IMG/VR virus record: IMGVR_UViG_2687453449_000005
Location: 1 to 11,394 of that record
Length of the DNA: 11,394 bases
Strand: one strand, 5' to 3'
Source of the DNA: a virus
Taxonomy: Duplodnaviria > Heunggongvirae > Uroviricota > Caudoviricetes
This document shows positions 1 through 11,394 of the stretch, in pieces. The notes beneath the pieces were generated by a model. The model was not told the origin of the DNA, ran no database searches, and saw only the letters and a list, made by a program, of their open reading frames with translations. The position numbers were made by a program, and so were the translations under genes. Position 1 is the stretch's first letter; each line of letters starts with the position of its first letter.

Positions 1-90
1 TCACTCTGCCAGATGGCGCAATGCCATCTGGTATCACTTAAAGGTATTAAAAACAACTTTTTGTCTTTTTACCTTCCCGTTTCGCTCAAA
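1..90. other. Host chromosomal flank of the lambda attB site (B' arm side of attR)
   Basis: Reverse complement of 60-97 reads ...CAAATTAGTATAAAAAAGC preceded by GAGCGAAACGGGAAGGTAAAAAGACAAAAAG, which matches the E. coli attB/attR B' arm as I recall it (CTTGAGCGAAACGGGAAGG...). Recall-based; not verifiable here. Confidence 0.7.
9..31. repeat. Inverted repeat hairpin CCAGATGGC-GCAAT-GCCATCTGG in host flank
   Basis: Perfect 9-bp arms with a 5-nt loop seen directly. No adjacent T-run on either strand, so a terminator role is not supported; function unknown. Confidence 0.4.
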
Positions 91-105
91 TTAGTATAAA
101 AAAGC
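91..105. other. attR core: 15-bp lambda common core (TTAGTATAAAAAAGC = reverse complement of GCTTTTTTATACTAA)
   Basis: Exact 15-bp core string, flanked on one side by host-like sequence and on the other by lambda P-arm-like sequence. Confidence 0.85.
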
Positions 106-250
106 TGAACGAGAAACGTAAAATGATATAAATATCAATATATTAAATTAGATTTTGCATAAAAAACAGACTACAAAATACTGTAAAACACAACATATGC
201 AGTCACTATGAATCAACTACTTAGATGATATTAGTGACCTGTAACAGAGC
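106..250. promoter_or_regulatory. Lambda attP P arm (Int arm-type / IHF / Xis / Fis binding region), here part of attR
   Basis: TGAACGAGAAACGTAAAATGATATAAATATCAATATATTAAATTAGATTTTGCATAAAAAACAGACTAC...CAGTCACTATGAATCAACTACTTAGATG.TATTAGTGACCTGTAACAG matches the lambda P arm as recalled, in reverse-complement orientation. Confidence 0.8.
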
Positions 251-292
251 ATTAGCGCAAGGTGATTTTTTGTCCTCTTGCGCTAATTTTTT
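251..292 (+). terminator. sib / tI-like hairpin with T-run (lambda int retroregulation and terminator element)
   Basis: ATTAGCGCAAGG ... CCTCTTGCGCTAAT inverted repeat followed by TTTTTT, about 150-190 bp from the core on the P-arm side, where lambda sib/tI lies. Confidence 0.65.
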
Positions 293-783
293 GTCAACTC
301 ACTGGGTTAGTTGAATTTACAACCATGCTCAGTATCTCGATAAGCGCAGGGAGATGATGCAGTGGTGGGCGGACTGGCTTGATGAAAGTGTGCTGTAATC
401 CTCATATCCAACCTAAGAGATATGCACAATTTTGTGAATAAGATATTGAGAATTAGCAAAAGTTTTATTTTGCGTATCATCAATTCAGAATACAAAGTCA
501 CATGCTAATGTTCTGCATTGGTATCTTTTGCTTATCCATGTCTACATTATCGCCAAAATAATAGGTTTTGTCTATCAATTATTTGAATTACTTCCATGAA
601 ATTATAACGCACTTGTAATTTTTGATTATTTTTACCTCTCAAGTGTTTTGTTTCTTCTATCTCTTTGTATTTTTAGCGAAAGTATGCCATATTGCATTCT
701 AATATAACGTGGCGTTGTTTCTGTTTAATGATTTAAATAGTTCAACATAATATTTGCTAACAAATTATATCCAAGCAAATCAT

Positions 784-1929
784 ATGATATTATCATTACA
801 ATATATTAGAGGAATAGCATCATTACTTGTTGTTTTATTCCACTTCAGATTCTTGCTAAATGAGCACTACTCTCAGAAAGATTTGGGTGACCTATTATTT
901 GGGAATGGGCTGTCTGGAGTTGATATATTCTTCATATTAAGTGGATTTATCATCGTATACTCAACAAGAAAGAAGGAAGTTAATGATACTTTCTCATTCT
1001 CAATTAGAAGAATATTTAGAATATACCCATTACTAATCACATGCTGTTGCATGTATTACATAATAAACACTCAATTTCTAACCTATGCTACAGTTGAAAA
1101 CTTTAGAACCTTACTTATTTCCATCATTCCATTAAATATAAACTGGAATGAAGGCGCTCCATTCTTTGCCTATAATCTTTTGTACCCGGCCTGGACGATA
1201 ACATATGAAATTGGTTTCTATGTTTTTTTCGGGGTATCAATGTCTATTTCGCATAAATACAGAACAATTATCTGTTCTGTTTTTATAATCATGGTGGTCT
1301 CATTTACACAATACTATGTAAATGGAAATATATCATTTTCAGGTGATGTTAGTGCAGGGTTATTTACAGATAACTGGTTATTAGGATATACAAATGTTAT
1401 TACATCTCCAATGATGTATGAATTCGTTATTGGGATGTTTCTTTCTGAAATATTTACAAACATCAACGAAAGCAAAAGTATTAAAAGGATACTTTCAAAG
1501 TATTCGCTTCAAATACTATGGATTTCATGTGGTATATCCATAATATTATTCATTATCCAGCGACCTTATGGGCATGGATTGAATGGATTTGGGACTATGG
1601 CGATGATACTTATTGCATCATCATTAGTATATGAATACTGCAATATAACACCCAAAATAAAAATATTTAATTTCCTTGGTGAAATATCATATTCTTTATA
1701 TCTAATTCACGCCGTGATACTTGCTTTGTTCTTCTATTATAAGGCAGACCTTGCTGAAATTGGCATAACTGGTGGATTTTCTGTGTTTTTTTCCTTGGTT
1801 ATTATCTCAATAACTGCATCATATCCAATATATATTCTCATTGAAAAGCCAATGATAAATATAGGTAAACGTTTAATTGACAAGAGAAATAAGAGCATTA
1901 ACAAAAAAGAAACCGAAATAACAGCGTGA
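784..1929 (+). CDS. Acyltransferase family 3 (AT3) integral membrane O-acyltransferase, Oac/OafA-like; candidate surface-polysaccharide O-acetylase
   Basis: Track ORF 754..1929 starts at TTG; first ATG is 784 (MILSLQYIRGIASLLVVLFHF). AT3 hallmarks: N-terminal R...H in TM1 (YIRGIASLLVVLFH), GxxGVDIFFILSGF, and RRIFRIYP motif. Highly hydrophobic and AT-rich. Confidence 0.8.
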   Translation: MILSLQYIRGIASLLVVLFHFRFLLNEHYSQKDLGDLLFGNGLSGVDIFFILSGFIIVYSTRKKEVNDTFSFSIRRIFRIYPLLITCCCMYYIINTQFLTYATVENFRTLLISIIPLNINWNEGAPFFAYNLLYPAWTITYEIGFYVFFGVSMSISHKYRTIICSVFIIMVVSFTQYYVNGNISFSGDVSAGLFTDNWLLGYTNVITSPMMYEFVIGMFLSEIFTNINESKSIKRILSKYSLQILWISCGISIILFIIQRPYGHGLNGFGTMAMILIASSLVYEYCNITPKIKIFNFLGEISYSLYLIHAVILALFFYYKADLAEIGITGGFSVFFSLVIISITASYPIYILIEKPMINIGKRLIDKRNKSINKKETEITA

Positions 1930-1942
1930 TAATGACAAAGTT

Positions 1943-1964
1943 AGTGCCGGGATACCCCGGCACT
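1943..1964. terminator. Bidirectional intrinsic terminator candidate between convergent genes
   Basis: AGTGCCGGG-ATAC-CCCGGCACT perfect 9-bp stem, followed by ATTTAATCTATTT on + and a T-containing tract on -. Sits between the stop at 1929 and the - strand stop at 1967. Confidence 0.5.
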
Positions 1965-1966
1965 AT

Positions 1967-3304
1967 TTAATCTATTTCGTAAGTGACAGTGATTATCACT
2001 TCTGCATTATTACCCAAAACATTTTGATATATATTCATATTACCTGATAATGTAGTTGCTCCAGTAAGAGTTATATAACTACTATTTGCATCAACCCTTG
2101 GAAGTAAAGCGGTAACTGCTGTTGTTAAATTATTATAGTAGCCTGTACTTCCAACATATGCAGCTTTATTGCTTGATACATATGGTAACCCTCCAATTCT
2201 GAAACCATCTCCTGACCCAATTAAAGTTATACCAAGGTGACATGTTGCCGTTATGATATTGCCACTCCTGACATAATTTCCTTTCTGCTGATAATATGTG
2301 GCATTACCACCTACAGTCGGAATCCAAACTCCAGTTTCTATATCACCACATGACCAGTCTTCTGCTGTTGTTAGTTTTCCAGTAACAATAAATTTACTTC
2401 CACCACCAGAATTATAAGGAACAAAAATTGGATTTATTCTTGCATAAGTGTTACCGGTCTGCTCATTAAGATCATTTCTATCAATAAGAACTTGACCATT
2501 TTCGAAGTTTGAAATCTGGCAGTCTGTTACACTCCAGTCTCTTAACTTCACATCAGCATCCATGACACCAATAAGCTTACCAGCATTACCAATTTTTTCT
2601 TTATGCATATTTACATACACATTTCTTACCGTAACAGACTGAGGGAACAGATAATTAGCAGGATTAGTTTTATCACTTAAAACAGATATTACCCAAGGTC
2701 TGTATTGAGTACTTACTTCACAATAAAATCCATCAATAAGCGTTCCAGATGCCGCTGGCCCAAGTAGTATTCCACCTGTAGAGTGATGCGCACTACCTCC
2801 AATTACTCTCCCCTTAACGCAGTTAATATAGGCAAAATATCCTAAATCTTGATTGTCATAGGCTGACATAGCACAGTCTCTAACTGTTACTCGAGAATTT
2901 CCTCCGTCATAAGCTGAGCCATCAGTTTTCTTACCAACTATTGATATAAAGTTACCAATAGCAACTCGACTATAAAAAGTTTTTTTATAACACCCCTCAA
3001 TTAAAATATCCCAGTTTTCAAACTGAGCATATATATCATAAGAGCTGGCATTCCCATAATCTATGAAATCACAATATCTTATTTTCGGCGTATAAACGGC
3101 ACTTTTTATCTTTATACCACCTAATGCTCTCTCCCCACCTGTGAATCTAATGCCAGTAACGGTGTAATCGCCTTGATAGAAATTATCTGCGGTAGGATTA
3201 TTTTCGTCAGAATCATCACCCAATATAATAGCAAATTCACTCCCTGAATAATTAATTGTCGCCCCCTTATTTGAATATATAGTTACAGGTCTTATAAACT
3301 CCAA
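1967..3304 (-). CDS. Tailspike/tail-fibre-like receptor-binding protein, putative right-handed beta-helix glycanase domain; probably 5'-truncated remnant
   Basis: 445-aa ORF rich in G/N/S/T/Y/V with repeated short beta-strand-like segments (e.g. VTVRDCAMSAYDNQDLGYFAYINCVKGRVIGGSAHHSTGGILLG), typical of pectate-lyase-fold tailspikes. The ORF begins at TTG directly after an in-frame TGA; first in-frame ATG is far inside; no head-binding N-terminal domain. Confidence 0.5.
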   Translation of the reverse strand: MEFIRPVTIYSNKGATINYSGSEFAIILGDDSDENNPTADNFYQGDYTVTGIRFTGGERALGGIKIKSAVYTPKIRYCDFIDYGNASSYDIYAQFENWDILIEGCYKKTFYSRVAIGNFISIVGKKTDGSAYDGGNSRVTVRDCAMSAYDNQDLGYFAYINCVKGRVIGGSAHHSTGGILLGPAASGTLIDGFYCEVSTQYRPWVISVLSDKTNPANYLFPQSVTVRNVYVNMHKEKIGNAGKLIGVMDADVKLRDWSVTDCQISNFENGQVLIDRNDLNEQTGNTYARINPIFVPYNSGGGSKFIVTGKLTTAEDWSCGDIETGVWIPTVGGNATYYQQKGNYVRSGNIITATCHLGITLIGSGDGFRIGGLPYVSSNKAAYVGSTGYYNNLTTAVTALLPRVDANSSYITLTGATTLSGNMNIYQNVLGNNAEVIITVTYEID

Positions 3305-3623
3305 AGAATTACTTATTAGATACTCTCCATAAGGAAAAAAATCTCAACTGGTGGTGAGTACTTTGGTCTGGAGTTTACGTAATTCATAATATTGATTACA
3401 CCAACATCATAGATAATCGCCACCTTCTGGCGAGGAGCTCCTGATGCAATTAATCGCCAGGCCTACGCCCATTATTCAGGGGTAAATTTTGGACGGAGCC
3501 CCCAATTCCATCCTCAATTCTCCCTCGCACTGAGGAGTAGTAAGTGCAATTATTTAAAAAATCGCAAACAGAATATTATCATTTATTCTTGCATTCTGTT
3601 AATTAAAACCACACATAAAAACG

Positions 3624-3653
3624 TTGATACTTGATAAGTAAGTAGAGTATTAT
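3624..3653 (+). promoter_or_regulatory. Sigma70-like promoter candidate for the downstream acyltransferase
   Basis: TTGATA (3624-3629), 18-bp spacer, TATTAT (3648-3653), about 40 bp upstream of the ATG at 3697. AT-rich context, so false positives are likely. Confidence 0.3.
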
Positions 3654-3696
3654 TAATGGTTTTAATAACGAACCTTTTAATCATGAGAAGCCTCAA

Positions 3697-4722
3697 ATGA
3701 CTAGTACCAATAACATAACAAGAAAAAAAATGGATGGAGTAACAATCTTAAGATTTATAGCTGCTTTTTATGTGTTTATTTTTCACATTAACATGAGAGT
3801 CCCCGTTAATTTTGGAGAGCTTATTAATAAAACCATTAGCAATGGCGTCATTGGCATGAGTATTTTCTTCATGCTTTCTGGTTTTGTTTTGACTTATAAT
3901 TACTATGGTTCCTTGTCAAACAATTACTTCAGGAAGCGAATAGCAAGAATATTTCCAGCCTATTTATTTTGTGGGCTTTTAACCCTCCCATTTTTGTTAT
4001 CCAGCGATGCAAGCTTTTTAAAAATGATTGCAAGCATATTCTTGTTTGTTACTGGAATGCAATCATGGATTTATCAGACCTTCGATTTTTGGAATTTTAG
4101 CGGTACCTGGTCAATATCAGTGGAATTGTTTTTTTATGCCCTGTTTCCATTTTTGATAAAAAACATCAACAAAAACAATGTAATTTATGTTTTACTTTTT
4201 TCATATTTATCTTCAGCATTATTAATCCCATTATCTGATATAATTCAGGGACCTGTAGTTTGGTCCGTATATTACGCAACTCCAATATACAGGTTACCAG
4301 AATTTGTGGTGGGCGTCTGTATCGCAATACTTTTTTTAAATGGCTATCGTGTTAACCATTATACATGGCTATTAAGCATTTTATTATTTCTGTATGCTAC
4401 CACCCAGCAAAACAATAACTCCATGGGGGTGAACTATCTCACAATTCCTGCGATATCAATTATGTTATTGCACCTGGCAAAAATCAACATCAAAAACAAT
4501 ATTGCAAACAGAGCGATCATTTACTTTGGAGATATAAGTTATTCGTTTTATTTGATGCAATTACCTATATTATATTACCTGGATCATAATAAAAACTCAT
4601 TTATTCTTAACTATGGTCTTTTTAGCTGGCTTGTACTTTTTGTTATTAATACTGCAATGGCATCATTATCTTATCACTTTCTGGAGAAGAACGATAAAAT
4701 CAGAAAAATAATTACATCCTGA
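3697..4722 (+). CDS. Acyltransferase family 3 (AT3) integral membrane O-acyltransferase, second divergent copy
   Basis: ATG start; ILRFIAAFYVFIFH (R...H), GVIGMSIFFMLSGF, and RKRIARIFPAY motifs. Shares family motifs with the 784..1929 protein but is otherwise clearly divergent. Alternative start at the internal M (MDGVTIL...). Confidence 0.8.
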   Translation: MTSTNNITRKKMDGVTILRFIAAFYVFIFHINMRVPVNFGELINKTISNGVIGMSIFFMLSGFVLTYNYYGSLSNNYFRKRIARIFPAYLFCGLLTLPFLLSSDASFLKMIASIFLFVTGMQSWIYQTFDFWNFSGTWSISVELFFYALFPFLIKNINKNNVIYVLLFSYLSSALLIPLSDIIQGPVVWSVYYATPIYRLPEFVVGVCIAILFLNGYRVNHYTWLLSILLFLYATTQQNNNSMGVNYLTIPAISIMLLHLAKINIKNNIANRAIIYFGDISYSFYLMQLPILYYLDHNKNSFILNYGLFSWLVLFVINTAMASLSYHFLEKNDKIRKIITS

Positions 4723-4723
4723 T

Positions 4724-4749
4724 TTATTAGGGGGGTACCCCCCTAATAA
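4724..4749. terminator. 26-bp perfect palindrome TTATTAGGGGGGTACCCCCCTAATAA; bidirectional terminator candidate or protein-binding site
   Basis: Perfect 12-bp arms around a central TA, between the convergent stops at 4722 (+) and 4764 (-). No strong U-run, so terminator function is uncertain. Confidence 0.45.
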
Positions 4750-4763
4750 TACACCACATAATT

Positions 4764-5159
4764 TCAACGTATTATCTCTGGCCTTTCTGGCCAGGTTATT
4801 TCTGGAATTAAGGACAAATCCACTGACATTAAATTATTAACATATTCCTTCCATAACAAAAGATTGTTCTTGTTATTTTCACTTATAATACCGAGTAACA
4901 AATCTGACTGCCAGTTCATAATTAAACCATTAGCACTATCCAGCAGACACTGTCTTTCATTCTCTGCCTCACGAAGTAATTCATCATGTGTTTTTGGCGG
5001 CTGCGTAGGTGACGAAAGCTTTCCCTTATCATAGAACCAACCAATTCTTACATTATCGGATACAGGTATAACTAACGCATTAGTTGGTTGCCAGGCACTC
5101 TCACCATCCCATACCGCAATATTGGTAACAACACCATTTTCTATAACGGCATAGTTCAT
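4764..5159 (-). CDS. Tail fibre assembly protein (Tfa-like chaperone)
   Basis: Track ORF starts at TTG (5174); first ATG at 5157-5159 gives MNYAVIENGVVTNIAVWDG... (131 aa), with Tfa-like LGIIS motif and C-terminal W/P-rich tail. The ATG overlaps the upstream stop in a TGATG arrangement (translational coupling). Confidence 0.7.
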   Translation of the reverse strand: MNYAVIENGVVTNIAVWDGESAWQPTNALVIPVSDNVRIGWFYDKGKLSSPTQPPKTHDELLREAENERQCLLDSANGLIMNWQSDLLLGIISENNKNNLLLWKEYVNNLMSVDLSLIPEITWPERPEIIR

Positions 5160-5644
5160 CACGCATACTCCCAAATGATTGCAATACCAGCCATTCCGCT
5201 ACCTCCGGCACGCTGCTGCGTCGCTCCACCGTAGACACAGGCACCACCGCCTCCACCACCATGGCCATTAGCATTAATACCTTCGCCTACAATGGCTTGT
5301 GACCCAGCCCCCGCACCAAGGATTGAATCGCCGCCAGGCCCCCCCATCGCCAGACTGCCGGAATACCGAACGCCTGGTGAGCTATAACCGCTTCCAGACC
5401 CGATAATATTTGCACCTGTAAATCCCGGCTCAGTATATGCTCCATACGGACCAACAACCCCTGGAGCAGTTCCTTCAGCAAGAACATTCCCACCAAGGCC
5501 ACCTTTGGCAATTATGGTATTGCCGAAAGAGGTTGTTCCCCCGGGAGCACCAACCGACGCACTTGCACCAGTGCCACCATATCCGATTGTCACAGTAGTT
5601 ACGGTTGGATTATCCACGCGAGCTTTAACATACTCCCCGGACAT
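5159..5644 (-). CDS. Tail fibre protein, glycine-rich C-terminal (receptor-binding) domain; likely remnant of a longer side-tail-fibre gene
   Basis: 161 aa, extremely Gly/Ala/Ser/Thr-rich (GGxG repeats, GHGGGGGG), as in C-terminal domains of enterobacterial prophage side tail fibres; immediately followed by tfa. ATG start is preceded by a G-run with no properly spaced SD. Confidence 0.6.
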   Translation of the reverse strand: MSGEYVKARVDNPTVTTVTIGYGGTGASASVGAPGGTTSFGNTIIAKGGLGGNVLAEGTAPGVVGPYGAYTEPGFTGANIIGSGSGYSSPGVRYSGSLAMGGPGGDSILGAGAGSQAIVGEGINANGHGGGGGGACVYGGATQQRAGGSGMAGIAIIWEYA

Positions 5645-5666
5645 CCCCCCGCCACCACAAGCAGCA

Positions 5667-6428
5667 TTATTGGGATAGCTTCTCCACGCTGTAGGTACGC
5701 AAATGCGCTTTGTAGACCAGCTGCGCCGCGCCGACAGTAGCGCTGTCGAACGCGGTAAGACGATCCCAGATACGCTCTACAACCGACATTCCCCATTCGT
5801 TCTCGGTCATCTTCTGCTGAAATGGCAGCGTGACGCCATCAAAGCGAATCAGTCGACTGTGATGAATGCGCCAGGCAGGAATTCCCGTTGCTGTGGTCAC
5901 CACATCGTAAAACTCAGGTTTACCCAGGTCCGGCCCCATATCTTTAATGCGGCGGGTCAGTACCGGGTCAATCATCCAGCGGTCGAGCGGGAGAATCCCC
6001 TTAAACTTGCCCTTACCGATGGTTTCGGGTCGCAGCGGGGTCATTGGTGCCTGCCCCTCAATCATGATGAAACCCACCGCGCCGCCGTAGAGGCGCGACC
6101 ATTTCAGCACGTCATTCAGCGCATCCCAGATTTGCAACTCATCCAGTTGTGATTCGAGAATGCCACGATCTTTTGCATCAATTTCCGAAGTGATGCGAAT
6201 GCCTTTGCGGGTCATATCATCTGGGATAGCATCGACCGCTTCGCCGATGATCCAGGACGAACGATAGGACCATTCCACCAGCATGCGGTTACGACTGGTG
6301 AAATTAGCCCGGTAGGTGGATGCTGAGTGCTGGTTAGGTGTCTGCATCCCTACGCGGGCAATAAAATTCTCATAACCATCAGCTGTGGCCTGCGCAGTTC
6401 GCCGCAGGGCTTGTTTGTTTCGTGCCAT
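5667..6428 (-). pseudogene. Probable portal protein, N-terminal fragment (253 aa), truncated by deletion
   Basis: Start ATG overlaps the terminase large subunit stop (TGATG), the usual terL-portal coupling. At 253 aa it is far shorter than any portal and is followed after 22 bp by a tail-fibre C-terminal ORF. Portal assignment is by position and general character only. Confidence 0.45.
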
Positions 6429-8050
6429 CAGGCCTGTCTCCCTAGCAGCTCCCAGATGTTCAGGGCTGAATTCATTGGGGCATAGTTGATCATCACCGAG
6501 TCGGCAAGGTTTGGCGATCGGGTTCCATCAGGCTGTTTATCAATAACGATTTTTCCCACACCATTAATGGAATAGGTCGGCTGCGAAAGCTCGATGATGA
6601 GTTTATCTTTGAGTGCCATGCTACTGCTGATTGAGATGATTTCGTCCGGGTTGTAAGCCATACCTTCAACCACGGCGCGCCAGGTATTCTGAAAAAGTTT
6701 ACGTAACCGCCACCAGCTCTGGGCTTTGGCGTTAGCGAAGAAGTCCTTGTTCAGACGTGCGGCTTGCCCGTTGTCCCCGCGAACAGCTTCATCATCTGGA
6801 TCAAATACCGCGCCACTACCTCGAAACGGTGTGGCGAGTATTGACGGTCGACGCGCAACGTTACGCAGTTCGTTGATAGCGCGTGCATCGCCGCGAACGC
6901 CAGCGCCCAGCCCGTCCTCGTCAAAGCGAAACTCTTCGAGGTTGTCCTGTTCGCAAAAACCGAAAACCTTCTCGACGGACTGATAAATGTCACTGCCCAC
7001 ACCGGACCATTCCCGCACATTTTCCAGGAGGAAGCCATGACGGGTGGAAAATGCATTTTTGTCCCTGCCTTCGTCGGCGACATCCATCGCGCCAAGTCGT
7101 TTGCCTGTTGGCTGGATACCCAGTTTGATATGTGCATCAACGGCAGCCTGTACCCATTCGGATGGAATCAGGACGCCTTCCGCTGATGCGCTGTAGTTCA
7201 GATCAAGTTCCTGTGCCACCACCACCGGATTATCGATTTTCTCGCATTCCCTGCGATACCACTCTTCATCCTTGCGAGGATCATCCCGCCAGTGGAATGT
7301 GAATACCGGTATCTTCCCGCCATGACGCTTCTGAGCGAACGGGTTCGCCATGCCGTTAACTGAACTCAGGTCAATACGGCAACGCGTCGTTTGTGACAAC
7401 GCCGCATCAATCAGCAGAGGACGCTGAAGGAATGCAGCCTCATCAACCAGATAAAGCGTGGTACGGTCACCACGACCAATATTATCGCCAGCCTCGCCTT
7501 TGATAACGGCACCAGTTTCAGGAAACTCAACACGCATATATGGCGCGTGCTTCTTCTCGCTCCACGAACCGCGAAACTCTACAGGTAGTGTTTCCACGAA
7601 CTTGCGCGCCTTCCAGAACAATGCTTTCGGGTCACCGGTGCTGTCGACGTATTCCTCTTTACGGGAGCCGAAACCGATAACCATTTCTTTGTTGAAGAGA
7701 CAAAGCGAGCAGGCCAGTCCGATCGCGGTCCAACTGAGCCCCATTTCACGGGATTTTTCGGTAATACCATTCTCCCTATTGCCCCAGCGTTCCATAATCC
7801 AGTGGATCCACTCCTCCTGCTTAGGGAAGAGTAAAAACGGAATGGTCACCGGCAGGCCATAATCAATATTACGCGGGTCCGTTGTCATGCCCCAGTCGAT
7901 GATGAACTGAGCCGGGTTGGTTCGGTAAAACTGTTTTAGTGCTGGCAATATTTCAGGGTTCTGGCGAATGCGCTGTAAGCGTTCCATCCGCCATTCAAAA
8001 ACCATCTGGTAATCAGGATTTTTAAAATCGAAGGGGAATGGTAACGGCAT
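6428..8050 (-). CDS. Phage terminase large subunit (ATPase + nuclease)
   Basis: 540 aa; Walker-B-like [10 protein letters not shown]-terminal nuclease-domain motifs ([22 protein letters not shown]) of the kind seen in P22/Sf6-type terminases; ATG start 2 nt after the terS stop. Confidence 0.85.
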
Positions 8051-8052
8051 AC

Positions 8053-8559
8053 TTAGCCCATCATTTTTCTATACGCCTCTGCAGCCTGCTCCGGCGTTAA
8101 GTTGGTAATTTCTGTTCTGACTGGTCCTCCATCAGCGCCAGTCACTTCATTTTTGACGTTGTCTTTAAACGCCTGAACAGAAACATGACGCCCAAGCAAC
8201 TCAAGGTTTTTAACCTTATCAGGCCATTTGATTTTCTTCAGAAGTGCGGCGCTATCTGCGGATACCATCTCCATGACATCCATTCCTGATAGCGTTGTGC
8301 GCCATACCTTAGGCCAGTCTTTAATGGGTTTTAGATCACCGTTTTGCAGGAGAATGTCGAGCACATCCATCTGGTCGATTTCAATAAGGCGATTAAGTAC
8401 ATATTCTGCATTAATACCAACAAGATCATTGCGTTGCGCTTTCAGTTCAGCGATTCTGAATTGTATGTCAGGTTTTGACAGGTTTTCGGATGCGGTACGG
8501 TTAGCTGTCTTTGCGCTGTACCCCGCCCGAATATCGGCAATGAATAACAATCCTCGCAC
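8053..8559 (-). pseudogene. Terminase small subunit, N-terminally truncated at a recombination junction
   Basis: ...IRAGYSAKTANRTASENLSKPDI matches the conserved terS block, but the preceding residues do not resemble a terS N-terminus; the only start is GTG, an in-frame TAA lies 5 codons upstream, and no SD is present. Confidence 0.6.
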
Positions 8560-8581
8560 TCGCGGGGATTTCTTTTATCTG

Positions 8582-8607
8582 AACTCGCTACGGCGAGTTT
8601 TGTTTTA
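8582..8607 (+). terminator. Intrinsic terminator candidate (AACTCGC-TACG-GCGAGTT then TTGTTTT)
   Basis: 7-bp stem plus T-rich tract seen directly; lies in the junction/intergenic zone upstream of the 55-aa ORF. Confidence 0.3.
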
Positions 8608-8619
8608 TGGAGATGATAA

Positions 8620-8787
8620 ATGCACTTCCGAGTCACAGGTGAATGGAATGGAGAACCATTCAACAGAGTTATCGAAGCGGAGAACATCAACGACTGCTAC
8701 GACCACTGGATGATATGGGCGCAGATAGCACATGCAGACATAACCAATATTCGAATTGAAGAACTGAAAGAACACCAATCCGCCTGA
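8620..8787 (+). CDS. Small hypothetical protein (55 aa), lambda orf55-like, upstream of xis
   Basis: ATG at 8620 with GGAG 8 nt upstream; open frame to TGA at 8785-8787 (MHFRVTGEWNGEPFNRVIEAENINDCYDHWMIWAQIAHADITNIRIEELKEHQSA). Same position and size as the 55-codon ORF next to xis in lambda. Absent from the ORF track, presumably by length cutoff. Confidence 0.6.
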   Translation: MHFRVTGEWNGEPFNRVIEAENINDCYDHWMIWAQIAHADITNIRIEELKEHQSA

Positions 8788-8799
8788 TGGCGGTTTTTT
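8780..8799 (+). terminator. Small hairpin + T6 (CCGCC-TGAT-GGCGG-TTTTTT) directly after the 55-aa ORF
   Basis: 5-bp GC stem, 4-nt loop containing the ORF stop codon, and six T; seen directly. Not a named lambda terminator that I can recall. Confidence 0.3.
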
Positions 8800-8800
8800 C

Positions 8801-8840
8801 TTGCGTGTAATTGCGGAGACTTTGCGATGTACTTGACACT
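8801..8840 (+). promoter_or_regulatory. pI-type cII-dependent int promoter (TTGC-N6-TTGC box)
   Basis: TTGCGTGTAATTGC at 8801-8814 is a cII recognition repeat just upstream of and overlapping the xis start, as for lambda pI, whose transcript starts inside xis. Confidence 0.5.
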
Positions 8841-9045
8841 TCAGGAGTGGAACGCTCGCCAGCGACGCCCAAGAAGCCTTGAAACAGTTCGTCGATGGGT
8901 GCGCGAATGCAGGATATTCCCTCCTCCGGTTAAGGATGGAAGAGAATATCTGTTCCACGAATCAGCGGTAAAGGTTGACTTAAATCGACCAGTAACAGGT
9001 AGCCTTTTGAAGAGGATCAGAAATGGGAAGAAGGCGAAGTCATGA
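8827..9045 (+). CDS. xis: Excisionase Xis (lambda Xis, 72 aa)
   Basis: MYLTLQEWNARQRRPRSLETVRRWVRECRIFPPPVKDGREYLFHESAVKVDLNRPVTGSLLKRIRNGKKAKS matches lambda Xis as recalled; GGAG SD 9 nt upstream; 23-nt overlap with int as in lambda. Confidence 0.95.
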   Translation: MYLTLQEWNARQRRPRSLETVRRWVRECRIFPPPVKDGREYLFHESAVKVDLNRPVTGSLLKRIRNGKKAKS

Positions 9046-10093
9046 GCGCCGGGATTTACCCCCTAACCTTTATATAAGAAACAATGGATATTACTGCTAC
9101 AGGGACCCAAGGACGGGTAAAGAGTTTGGATTAGGCAGAGACAGGCGAATCGCAATCACTGAAGCCATACAGGCCAACATTGAGTTATTTTCAGGACACA
9201 AACACAAGCCTCTGACAGCGAGAATCAACAGTGATAATTCCGTTACGCTACATTCATGGCTTGATCGCTACGAAAAAATCCTGGCCAGCAGAGGAATCAA
9301 GCAGAAGACACTCATAAATTACATGAGCAAAATTAAAGCAATAAGGAGGGGGCTGCCTGATGCTCCACTTGAAGACATCACCACAAAAGAAATTGCGGCA
9401 ATGCTCAATGGATACATAGACGAGGGCAAGGCGGCGTCAGCCAAGTTAATCAGATCAACACTGAGCGATGCATTCCGAGAGGCAATAGCTGAAGGCCATA
9501 TAACAACAAACCCTGTCGCTGCCACTCGCGCAGCAAAATCAGAGGTAAGGAGATCAAGACTTACGGCTGACGAATACCTGAAAATTTATCAAGCAGCAGA
9601 ATCATCACCATGTTGGCTCAGACTTGCAATGGAACTGGCTGTTGTTACCGGGCAACGAGTTGGTGATTTATGCGAAATGAAGTGGTCTGATATCGTAGAT
9701 GGATATCTTTATGTCGAGCAAAGCAAAACAGGCGTAAAAATTGCCATCCCAACAACATTGCATGTTGATGCTCTCGGGATATCAATGAAGGAAACACTTG
9801 ATAAATGCAAAGAGATTCTTGGCGGAGAAACCATAATTGCATCTACTCGTCGTGAACCGCTTTCATCCGGCACAGTATCAAGGTATTTTATGCGCGCACG
9901 AAAAGCATCAGGTCTTTCCTTCGAAGGGGATCCGCCTACCTTTCACGAGTTGCGCAGTTTGTCTGCAAGACTCTATGAGAAGCAGATAAGCGATAAGTTT
10001 GCTCAACATCTTCTCGGGCATAAGTCGGACACCATGGCATCACAGTATCGTGATGACAGAGGCAGGGAGTGGGACAAAATTGAAATCAAATAA
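9023..10093 (+). CDS. int: Tyrosine integrase (lambda Int, 356 aa)
   Basis: MGRRRSHERRDLPPNLYIRNNGYYCYRDPRTGKEFGLGRDRRIAITEAIQ...SQYRDDRGREWDKIEIK matches lambda Int essentially throughout; catalytic residues at lambda numbering R212, K235, H308, R311, H333, Y342 are all present. Confidence 0.97.
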   Translation: MGRRRSHERRDLPPNLYIRNNGYYCYRDPRTGKEFGLGRDRRIAITEAIQANIELFSGHKHKPLTARINSDNSVTLHSWLDRYEKILASRGIKQKTLINYMSKIKAIRRGLPDAPLEDITTKEIAAMLNGYIDEGKAASAKLIRSTLSDAFREAIAEGHITTNPVAATRAAKSEVRRSRLTADEYLKIYQAAESSPCWLRLAMELAVVTGQRVGDLCEMKWSDIVDGYLYVEQSKTGVKIAIPTTLHVDALGISMKETLDKCKEILGGETIIASTRREPLSSGTVSRYFMRARKASGLSFEGDPPTFHELRSLSARLYEKQISDKFAQHLLGHKSDTMASQYRDDRGREWDKIEIK

Positions 10094-10172
10094 TGATTTT
10101 ATTTTGACTGATAGTGACCTGTTCGTTGCAACAAATTGATAAGCAATGCTTTTTTATAATGCCAACTTAGTA
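10094..10172. other. attL remnant: lambda P' arm plus first 6 bp of the core (TTAGTA), interrupted by IS10
   Basis: AATGATTTTATTTTGACTGATAGTGACCTGTTCGTTGCAACAAATTGATAAGCAATGCTTTTTTATAATGCCAAC + TTAGTA matches the lambda P' arm up to the core, then breaks into an IS10 end. Confidence 0.85.
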
Positions 10173-11394
10173 CTGAGAGATCCCCTCATAATTTCCCCAA
10201 AGCGTAACCATGTGTGAATAGATTTTGAGTAAGCAGGGTTGCAGCCACGAGTGAGTCTTCCCTTGTTATTGTGTAGCCAGAATGCCGCAAAACTTCCATG
10301 CCTAAGCGAACTGTTGAGAGTACGTTTCGATTTCTGACTGTGTTAGCCTGGAAGTGCTTGTCCCAACCTTGTTTCTGAGCATGAACGCCCGCAAGCCAAC
10401 ATGTTAGTTGAAGCATCAGGGCGATTAGCAGCATGATATCAAAACGCTCTGAGCTGCTCGTTCGGCTATGGCGTAGGCCTAGTCCGTAGGCAGGACTTTT
10501 CAAGTCTCGGAAGGTTTCTTCAATCTGCATTCGCTTCGAATAGATATTAACAAGTTGTTTGGGTGTTCGAATTTCAACAGGTAAGTTAGTTGCTAGAATC
10601 CATGGCTCCTTTGCCGACGCTGAGTAGATTTTAGGTGACGGGTGGTGACAATGAGTCCGTGTCGAGCGCTGATTTTTTCGGCCTTTAGAGCGAGATTTAT
10701 ACAATAGAATTTGGCATGAGATTGGATTGCTTTTAGTCAGCCTCTTATAGCCTAAAGTCTTTGAGTGACTAGATGACATATCATGTAAGTTGCTGATAGG
10801 TTTCCAGTTTTCCGCTCCTAGGTCTGCATATTGTACTTTTCCTCTTACTCGACTTAACCAGTACCAACCCAGCTTCTCAACGGATTTATACCATGGCACT
10901 TTAAAGCCAGCATCACTGACAATGAGCGGTGTGGTGTTACTCGGTAGAATGCTCGCAAGGTCGGCTAGAAATTGGTCATGAGCTTTCTTTGAACATTGCT
11001 CTGAAAGCGGGAACGCTTTCTCATAAAGAGTAACAGAACGACCGTGTAGTGCGACTGAAGCTCGCAATACCATAAGTCGTTTTTGCTCACGGATATCAGA
11101 CCAGTCAACAAGTACAATGGGCATCGTATTGCCCGAACAGATAAAGCTAGCATGCCAACGGTATACAGCGAGTCGCTCTTTGTGGAGGTGACGATTACCT
11201 AACAATCGGTCGATTCGTTTGATGTTATGTTTTGTTCTCGCTTTGGTTGGCAGGTTACGGCCAAGTTCGGTAAGAGTGAGAGTTTTACAGTCAAGTAATG
11301 CGTGGCAAGCCAACGTTAAGCTGTTGAGTCGTTTTAAGTGTAATTCGGGGCAGAATTGGTAAAGAGAGTCGTGTAAAATATCGAGTTCGCACAT
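10173..11394 (-). mobile_element. IS10 (IS4 family), partial in window: inside end at 10173, element continues about 107 bp beyond the window
   Basis: Terminal CTGAGAGATCCCCTCATAATTTCCCCAAAGCGTAACC matches the IS10 inside end as recalled. Transposase stop lies 14-16 bp inside this end and the 402-codon ORF starts at the last window base, fitting the 1329-bp IS10 layout. Confidence 0.93.
10186..11394 (-). CDS. IS10 transposase (DDE, IS4 family), complete 402 aa
   Basis: MCELDILHDSLYQFCPELHLKRLNSLTLACHALLDCKTLTLTELGRN... with DAGF and YSKRMQIEETFRDLK (YREK signature) motifs; matches Tn10/IS10 transposase as recalled. Confidence 0.95.
   Translation of the reverse strand: MCELDILHDSLYQFCPELHLKRLNSLTLACHALLDCKTLTLTELGRNLPTKARTKHNIKRIDRLLGNRHLHKERLAVYRWHASFICSGNTMPIVLVDWSDIREQKRLMVLRASVALHGRSVTLYEKAFPLSEQCSKKAHDQFLADLASILPSNTTPLIVSDAGFKVPWYKSVEKLGWYWLSRVRGKVQYADLGAENWKPISNLHDMSSSHSKTLGYKRLTKSNPISCQILLYKSRSKGRKNQRSTRTHCHHPSPKIYSASAKEPWILATNLPVEIRTPKQLVNIYSKRMQIEETFRDLKSPAYGLGLRHSRTSSSERFDIMLLIALMLQLTCWLAGVHAQKQGWDKHFQANTVRNRNVLSTVRLGMEVLRHSGYTITREDSLVAATLLTQNLFTHGYALGKL

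Follow-up and report, generated by a model that had tools for sequence, protein, structure and literature searches.

A block of AT-rich DNA in IMG/VR record IMGVR_UViG_2687453449_000005, a caudoviricete sequence of 11,394 nucleotides that is referred to here, at its full length, as the window, encodes two acyltransferase-3 (AT3) membrane proteins, AT3-1 (784–1929, plus strand; alternative TTG start at 754) and AT3-2 (3697–4722, plus strand), on either side of an oppositely oriented open reading frame (ORF) of 445 codons (1967–3304, minus strand). A sequence-only reading had placed all three ORFs at these coordinates and proposed that together they acetylate a polysaccharide at two sites in connection with a glycan-recognition module. 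The association of acetylase with receptor-binding gene stands, but the notion of one three-gene unit does not; the block is a composite of two unrelated prophage ends, joined at a microhomology, in the b-region of lambda-B, a defective prophage of Escherichia coli B. In the interpretation favoured here, to which we assign a probability of roughly 0.75, this two-fragment composite carries lysogenic-conversion acetylases directed at the O7 antigen, which would acetylate that polymer, would confer an exclusion phenotype and would be silent in strain B.

The first fragment, positions 313–3410, is collinear and uninterrupted, at 98.7% identity over 3,100 aligned positions, with a prophage of E. 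coli 2018-05-5CC. The order in that strain is yfdC, tRNA-Arg (argW), intS, AT3-1, a convergent and intact tailspike gene encoding 649 residues with a head-binding domain, and P22-type genes (HNH, Arc, gp16, gp20 and gp7); its AT3-1 cassette, 99.2% identical to that of the window, thus lies beside an intact tailspike. Fragment 1 is the argW-side end of a prophage of a P22/Sf6-like podovirus and consists of a truncated integrase gene, AT3-1 and a truncated convergent tailspike gene. The integrase piece (313–435, plus strand), recognized by nucleotide identity, comprises the last 27 codons of an IntS/Sf6-type (argW) gene (315–398, ending in MMQWWADWLDESVL and the stop codon) and 37 nucleotides of downstream DNA, and carries the RefSeq label of a pseudogene fragment. 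It is 95.8% identical to the 3′ end of Sf6 int and 98.3% identical to the int of another E. coli P22-like prophage, in which a gene for an AT3-SGNH protein occupies the slot of AT3-1. Homology to the latter prophage stops at 435/436 and at 1991/1992, indicating that the acetylase is an exchangeable cassette. The AT-rich leader of AT3-1 (436–783, plus strand) has a GC fraction of 0.28 and contains no GATC. AT3-1 homologues of 52% identity are likewise located between a tailspike and an argW int. On a contig of SRR10687757 (positions 2378–3478) a 90%-identical homologue lies not behind a tailspike but beside a phage lysis cassette of two holins, a GH19 endolysin and a DUF2514 spanin, an arrangement from which it follows that the cassette moves among moron slots.

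The second fragment, positions 3397–5677, is collinear with a different source. It aligns to strain AR_0013 over 2,281 nucleotides at 98.4% identity with no indels, and the order there is Mu/e14-type baseplate genes, ymfQ, a gene for a 316-residue glycine-rich fibre, tfa, a convergent AT3-2 and a pseudogene labelled ‘HTH’ (helix-turn-helix). In the window the corresponding genes are the C-terminal half (161 residues) of the glycine-rich short tail fibre (5159–5677, minus strand; Gly_rich_2, 6.4e-05; phrog_863, 1.6e-23), truncated against a portal gene fragment; the tail fibre assembly gene tfa (4764–5174, minus strand; 136 residues; PF02413, 2.8e-23, and PHROG tail fibre assembly families); AT3-2; and the C-terminal helix-turn-helix remnant of a Pin/Gin-type DNA invertase (3397–3501, minus strand, with the sequence PRQKVAIIYDVGV), a stub of ∼35 codons that is 85.9% identical to the annotated pinE of H121 and whose AR_0013 equivalent is called an ‘HTH domain’ pseudogene in RefSeq. 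Homologues of AT3-2 with 58–69% identity invariably converge on a Caudo_TAP gene, in tail modules of P2-like and other myoviruses, and one of them, on a P2-like contig, occupies a slot between tfa and the sheath gene. Fragment 2 is, from this comparison, the distal part of the tail module of an e14/Mu-like myovirus and comprises a truncated fibre gene, tfa, a convergent AT3-2 and an invertase remnant. The possibility that AT3-2 belongs to a Pin-invertible fibre segment was rejected, as a search for gix/hix-like crossover sites gave no match at up to three mismatches, with one chance-level core match elsewhere only, and no long inverted repeats flank AT3-2.

Three-way alignment and translation place the joint between the fragments at an ∼11-nucleotide microhomology, ACCAACATCAT, at about 3399–3410, where the DNA encodes YDVGV in both the invertase helix-turn-helix and the tailspike. 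Identity of this length at the joint is a signature of illegitimate recombination. The product places the invertase stub in frame with tailspike codon ∼176, and stop codons precede the fusion. An upstream peptide ending in AIIYDVGV had been considered as part of the tailspike; this was rejected, since the alignment to AR_0013 identifies it as invertase helix-turn-helix fused at the YDVGV microhomology. As each fragment is collinear, at 98% identity or more, with a different type of prophage, the idea of one coherent system is not supported, and the apparent bracketing of a tailspike by two acetylases is an accident of assembly, in which a module of fibre and tfa facing AT3-2 has been set next to one of tailspike facing AT3-1 and int. 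Each fragment is, nevertheless, a known pairing of a receptor-binding gene with a convergent acetylase moron.

The 445-residue product of the middle ORF corresponds to residues 205–649 of a P22-like tailspike, comprising the β-helix and the C-terminal domain. It shares 82% identity with a 648-residue E. coli ‘phage tailspike protein’ that contains PF09008 (P22 head-binding) and PF12708 (pectate-lyase-3), while Pfam, PHROG and PADLOC gave no match to the ORF itself. Its AlphaFold (AF2) model is all-β with a predicted local distance difference test score (pLDDT) of 87.8, and the top Foldseek matches of the model in the PDB are all phage tailspikes, with a probability of 1.00 (Dettilon gp208, 8.7e-11; HK620, 7.5e-07; CBA120 and Sf6 lower in the list). 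The proposal that the ORF encodes a tailspike-type β-helix was thus correct. In a profile search of PDB sequences, matches to the full-length homologues were confined to their N-terminal region, which the window ORF lacks. The intact gene of 2018-05-5CC is 98.7% identical to the ORF at the nucleotide level, with 19 synonymous and 3 nonsynonymous differences. Relative to it the window gene has lost codons 1 to ∼175, including the PF09008 head-binding domain, which is present in both the 648-residue homologue and the 649-residue 2018-05-5CC protein, and it has suffered a 1-nucleotide deletion in an A/T run at 3335. The upstream remainder (3305–3410, minus strand, codons ∼176–204) is therefore out of frame; tblastn with the 648-residue protein found residues 170–194 there in another frame. 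The only start of the ORF is a TTG with no visible Shine-Dalgarno sequence, so that residues 205–649 are read from a fortuitous codon. The missing head-binding domain, the frameshift and the poor start together mark the tailspike as a dead remnant, a non-functional pseudogene.

A relative of the receptor domain is found in another phage type. The tailspike of the G7C-like phage St11Ph5/vB_EcoP_ShWW44 is 56% identical over the whole 445 residues (MG208881, 61692–63017) but has an unlike N-terminal anchor, and the match indicates that this receptor domain is a mobile module of temperate podoviruses and lytic N4-like phages. St11Ph5 was isolated on a uropathogenic E. coli host of serogroup O5ab, its spike is a predicted lyase and its infection appeared to be O-antigen independent (PMC5764931, PMC6393563), which is unexpected for such a spike.

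Both AT3 genes, by contrast with their truncated neighbours, are intact, encoding AT3-only acyltransferases of 381 (AT3-1) and 341 (AT3-2) residues, the same lengths as their homologues. At the Pfam gathering threshold (31 bits), the 326-position model PF01757 matched nearly full-length to AT3-1 (1e-30, 107.4 bits, model 2–325) and AT3-2 (3.8e-27, 95.6 bits, model 3–315), which bears out their earlier assignment to this family, and both also matched phrog_3333, ‘O-acetyltransferase’ (2.7e-72 and 2e-40, respectively). AT3-1 contains R9-X10-H20 (RGIASLLVVLFH, residues 9–20), FFILSGF at 49 and RIFR at 76, and AT3-2 contains R19-X10-H30 (RFIAAFYVFIFH, residues 19–30), FFMLSGF at 57 and RIAR at 81. 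The pattern R-X10-H, FFxxSG[FY] and RXXR is shared with Sf6 Oac, and R/K-X10-H in the first transmembrane helix and RXXR in the first cytoplasmic loop are functionally important AT3 motifs (PMC9558356). A crude Kyte-Doolittle scan yielded ∼10 hydrophobic segments for each protein after overlaps were merged. The two enzymes are clearly non-identical, as had been claimed, aligning at 31% identity over only 83 residues. They are not Oac orthologues, the grouping having been assessed by direct comparison with the Sf6 protein and not with OacB, OacC or OacD; BLASTP against Sf6 Oac gave 24% identity over 192 residues for AT3-1 (E 1.5e-05) and 40% over 50 residues for AT3-2, and Sf6 was not among the matches when a phage collection was searched with both proteins by tblastn (E 1e-5). 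Neither contains an SGNH domain according to Pfam, and NCBIfam matched neither the two AT3 proteins nor the 445-residue ORF. Nothing points to phase variation of these genes by Dam/OxyR, and no GATC occurs upstream of AT3-1 (399–800) or AT3-2 (3305–3700). Taken together, the profiles and motifs identify AT3-1 and AT3-2 as AT3 acyltransferases of the phage ‘O-acetyltransferase’ type, and they would represent new, uncharacterised examples of the phage AT3 conversion acetylases.

The arrangement of fragment 1 closely resembles that of Sf6, where gene 14 (tailspike), gene 15 (oac/OacA) and gene 16 (int) have the same order and orientation as window 313–3410. In Sf6 the tailspike gene (plus strand) is followed by a terminator, oac and int (both minus strand), with attP upstream of int. 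In both loci the acetylase gene follows an argW-type int on the same strand, and a hairpin separates the convergent genes. The window differs in that the receptor domain of its tailspike has no sequence relationship to the Sf6 endorhamnosidase, the resemblance being limited to the fold and to the N-terminal domain of the intact homologues; in that the module is a fragment, which lacks attP and retains just 27 int codons and a tailspike that is truncated and frameshifted; in that the flanking att site is that of lambda and not argW; and in that the host serogroup is O7 rather than Shigella flexneri Y/X. In BTP1 and P22-like prophages of Salmonella a modification gene, encoding OafB (GtrC family II) or gtrABC, similarly comes directly after the tailspike gene and shields the lysogen against the spike of its own phage (PMC9558356). 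The window AT3s, however, lack the SGNH domain and the upstream GATC (Dam/OxyR) signature of those loci. The counterpart of fragment 2 is the moron slot after tfa in P2-like and e14/Mu-like myoviruses, in which AT3-2 and its homologues of 58–69% identity follow the fibre genes directly and converge on Caudo_TAP, although the window retains only the C-terminal half of the fibre, tfa and the invertase stub, inside a prophage of the lambda type.

These comparisons suggest how the two enzymes might act. Each AT3 gene forms an independent, AT-rich moron cassette that has a leader of its own and shares a hairpin with the converging receptor-binding gene; genes of this class serve temperate phages in lysogenic conversion. 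The presumably multi-pass protein would move acetyl groups from cytoplasmic acetyl-CoA across the inner membrane, where they would be placed on a sugar of the O-antigen repeat, likely that of O7. The acetylated O-antigen would not be bound or cleaved by the O-antigen-specific tailspikes or fibres of the phage itself or of similar phages, leading to superinfection exclusion and a serotype shift. Precedents are Sf6 Oac and BTP1 OafB, for which it is established that an acetyl group added to an O-antigen sugar is a steric obstacle to the tailspike of the same phage (PMC9558356). Tailspikes of Lederbergvirus prophages track the host serogroup, and an O-antigen modification gene is often found behind their receptor-binding gene (PMC10408124). 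Consistent with this model, relatives of the two AT3s immediately follow phage receptor-binding genes in five or more different prophage contexts.

The O7 antigen is suggested as the acceptor by the distribution of the two cassettes among 5,426 complete genomes. The O7 wzy gene is present in 97 of the 5,426, the AT3-1 cassette in 51 and the AT3-2 cassette in 68. Of the AT3-1 carriers listed, 28 of 30 are also among the O7 genomes listed, as are 27 of the 29 carriers listed with full-length matches to AT3-2. O7 carriers with these genes in other prophage contexts, which are clearly not derivatives of strain B, include 2018-05-5CC (in which the O7 cluster is intact), AR_0013, the mouse isolates 8178, DEF2 and 3-72, and AST205. 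As carriage tracks O7 in strains outside the B lineage as well, the O7 antigen is the likely substrate of both acetylases, and the intact tailspike of 2018-05-5CC would be an O7-specific enzyme.

E. coli B strains are rough. In REL606 (2034341–2035856) IS1A abuts a 768-nucleotide wbbD, whereas wbbD in the smooth-type O7 cluster of 2018-05-5CC (1254159–1254986) is 828 nucleotides long and has no insertion sequence IS1 beside it; this difference fits the lesion responsible for the roughness of the B strains. The B lineage is ancestrally O7. With the O7 cluster broken by IS1 beside the shortened wbbD, AT3-1 and AT3-2 would have no O-antigen substrate in E. coli B and are probably idle there.

Several observations weigh against this interpretation. 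The two proteins are only remotely similar to characterised Oac, database names of their homologues include ‘ExoZ’, and AT3-only proteins have very diverse acceptors (PMC9558356); enterobacterial common antigen, exopolysaccharides, osmoregulated periplasmic glucans and other molecules are also modified by such enzymes. Clonality confounds the link to O7, with many of the carriers being laboratory derivatives of strain B, and two carriers in each AT3 list could not be checked, as the O7 comparison covered only part of the 97 O7 genomes. A report of an O7 structure bearing O-acetyl groups was not found in the literature searched. Finally, both ORFs are intact in a rough strain, which could mean that they have another substrate, although recency would explain their condition equally well.

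One alternative is that the AT3s are active in E. coli B on an acceptor other than O-antigen, such as enterobacterial common antigen, the lipopolysaccharide core, colanic acid, poly-N-acetylglucosamine or periplasmic glucans, and have remained intact for that reason. The very broad range of acceptors known for AT3-only proteins, the preservation of motifs as well as reading frames in the rough strains and homologue names of the type ExoZ or ‘exopolysaccharide production protein’ are all in keeping with such a role. The closest relatives of both genes, however, consistently lie directly behind phage receptor-binding genes, carriage tracks O7 wzy, and the ExoZ-type names are annotation transfers. 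Furthermore, the 28–32% GC leaders would be typical targets of silencing by H-NS in E. coli. We therefore regard a non-O-antigen acceptor as improbable, if the best placed of the alternatives to O7-directed conversion.

Less probable still is the model of a single co-selected unit, in which two acetylases act on two sites of one polysaccharide, are coupled to the β-helix protein and have been kept together during decay of the prophage. In its favour, both AT3 ORFs are intact where every neighbouring structural gene is truncated, both co-occur with O7 and so may act on the same polymer, and the 445-codon ORF runs without a break through AT-rich sequence. The halves of the block, however, match two types of prophage at 98.4–98.7% identity, each of which carries just one of the AT3s; at the joint, recombination through microhomology has fused an invertase remnant to tailspike codon ∼176; and the tailspike is frameshifted and has no head-binding domain. 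The ratio of 19 synonymous to 3 nonsynonymous differences in the tailspike reflects divergence between functional genes and not selection on the stub. More generally, the synonymous to nonsynonymous counts (19:3, 5:3 and 5:3) are too few, and mostly predate truncation, so that they do not test current selection. That the acetylases were retained while the rest of the phage decayed is accurate as a description, but since all carriers of the island are ∼100% identical, retention by selection is not separable from youth. The single-unit model is thus largely refuted.

Expression of the 445-residue remnant as a free O-antigen-binding or -degrading protein (for instance as a decoy, as an enzyme that trims O-chains or as an exclusion factor) might be imagined from a long intact ORF that keeps the whole predicted β-helix and C-terminal domain at a pLDDT of 87.8, but is very improbable given its TTG start with no recognisable Shine-Dalgarno sequence, a next in-frame Met ∼146 residues further in, no evident signal peptide or export route, the loss of residues 1–204 with the first β-helix turns, an upstream region that holds only a dead invertase fragment with stop codons, and no PADLOC or PHROG family match.

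The O7-directed interpretation can be extended, tentatively, to a division of labour between the enzymes. It is possible, if rather less likely than the general model, that AT3-1 and AT3-2 are two distinct O7 O-acetyltransferases, derived from two unrelated types of temperate phage, that acetylate different positions of the O7 repeat and so define hidden O7 subtypes.

The setting of the composite is well defined. Window 1–5200 is 100% identical to chromosomes of the E. coli B lineage (REL606, BL21, ATCC 11303 and wild relatives), and in REL606 the region is flanked by ybhB/bio on one side and ybhC on the other, which is the lambda attB site. A 12.1-kb defective prophage at attB has been named lambda-B for the E. 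coli B lineage (PMC4395058), and the window region is this element. Its lambda attR (87–296; 97.6% identity to lambda NC_001416, 27534–27742) includes the att core (89–105), the P′ arm and the sib/tI hairpin (244–294), an inverted repeat (I3) with arms at 244–261 and 277–294, and xis-int (8544–10172) is 98.7% identical to that of lambda. The late genes, all on the minus strand, are terS, terL, the portal fragment, the fibre C-terminus and tfa. As the att/sib region, xis-int and the late genes follow the layout of lambda, the AT-rich block, lying between the att core/sib (87–296) and tfa, occupies the b-region of a decayed lambdoid prophage, the position it had been given from the sequence alone. 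The prophage was thus already known, and its AT3 genes are already annotated as ‘acyltransferase family protein’; the literature, searched for O7 O-acetylation and for accounts of the genes in B strains, yielded no more than the name given to the 12.1-kb lambda-B prophage.

Similarly clear is the contrast in composition. GC fractions fall to 0.28–0.39 across 436–5174 (0.28 in the AT3-1 leader, 0.31 in AT3-1, 0.36 in the 445-residue ORF, 0.32 in AT3-2 and 0.39 in tfa), compared with 0.55 in the fibre C-terminus, 0.54 in the portal fragment, 0.52 in terL and 0.46 in xis-int. The block is therefore far more AT-rich than the terminase region (28–38% GC over 436–4760 versus 52–55% GC), and hairpins separate its convergent genes, both as described previously. 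The hairpin between AT3-1 and the tailspike (1942–1965) is a perfect, GC-rich 10-bp stem with seven GC pairs that resembles a terminator on both strands, and a terminator is annotated at the equivalent place in Sf6. The interval between AT3-2 and tfa contains an imperfect palindrome (4710–4763) with 27-nucleotide arms and the core TTAGGGGGGT/ACCCCCCTAA. Rfam gave no match in the window at gathering thresholds, and the absence of a PADLOC match in the block indicates that it is not a catalogued defence system.

Other features of the window lie outside the composite. No complete genome of the collection is matched by the window in full. Some 2.0 kb present between terS and xis of REL606, with a hypothetical gene, a lysC/Rz1-like gene, a truncated DUF551 gene and genes for DUF4752 and ASCH proteins, is absent from the window (8560–8830). 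After int, a gene for an IS10/ISVsa5-type transposase of the IS4 family (10186–11394) runs off the end of the window, where REL606 has ybhC (window 10173–11394), and 8000–11394 is covered, to 84%, by one genome only, strain 2e. For the portal fragment (5667–6428, minus strand; Phage_portal_3, 1e-55) RefSeq gives a pseudogene of an ‘anti-CBASS protein Acb1 family protein’, a name that seems to have arisen through misannotation of a truncated portal gene. A 540-residue protein (6428–8050, minus strand) in the position of the large terminase, directly after the Terminase_2 small subunit, has no Pfam or PADLOC match at the thresholds used. Between terS and xis, stretches at 8541–8617 and 8736–8807 are 94–97% identical to the early-left region of Sf6 (6427–6875), which adds to the evidence for P22-like/lambda mosaicism here.

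The analysis implies no new mechanism. It removes the apparent oddity of the locus, in that two prophage ends, each with a standard pairing of receptor gene and conversion acetylase, have been stacked by illegitimate recombination. It also provides a concrete hypothesis, O7-specific conversion acetylation, for two unstudied genes of the most widely used protein-expression strains. The argW prophage of 2018-05-5CC represents an intact source, and its tailspike is a strong candidate for an O7-specific depolymerase, which may be of relevance to typing of, or phage work on, O7 strains, including O7:K1 extraintestinal pathogenic E. coli. If the two enzymes do modify different positions of the repeat, natural O7 strains would comprise unrecognised acetylation subtypes that differ in their susceptibility to phages and antibodies, and the B and BL21 strains would hold both enzymes as intact fossils.

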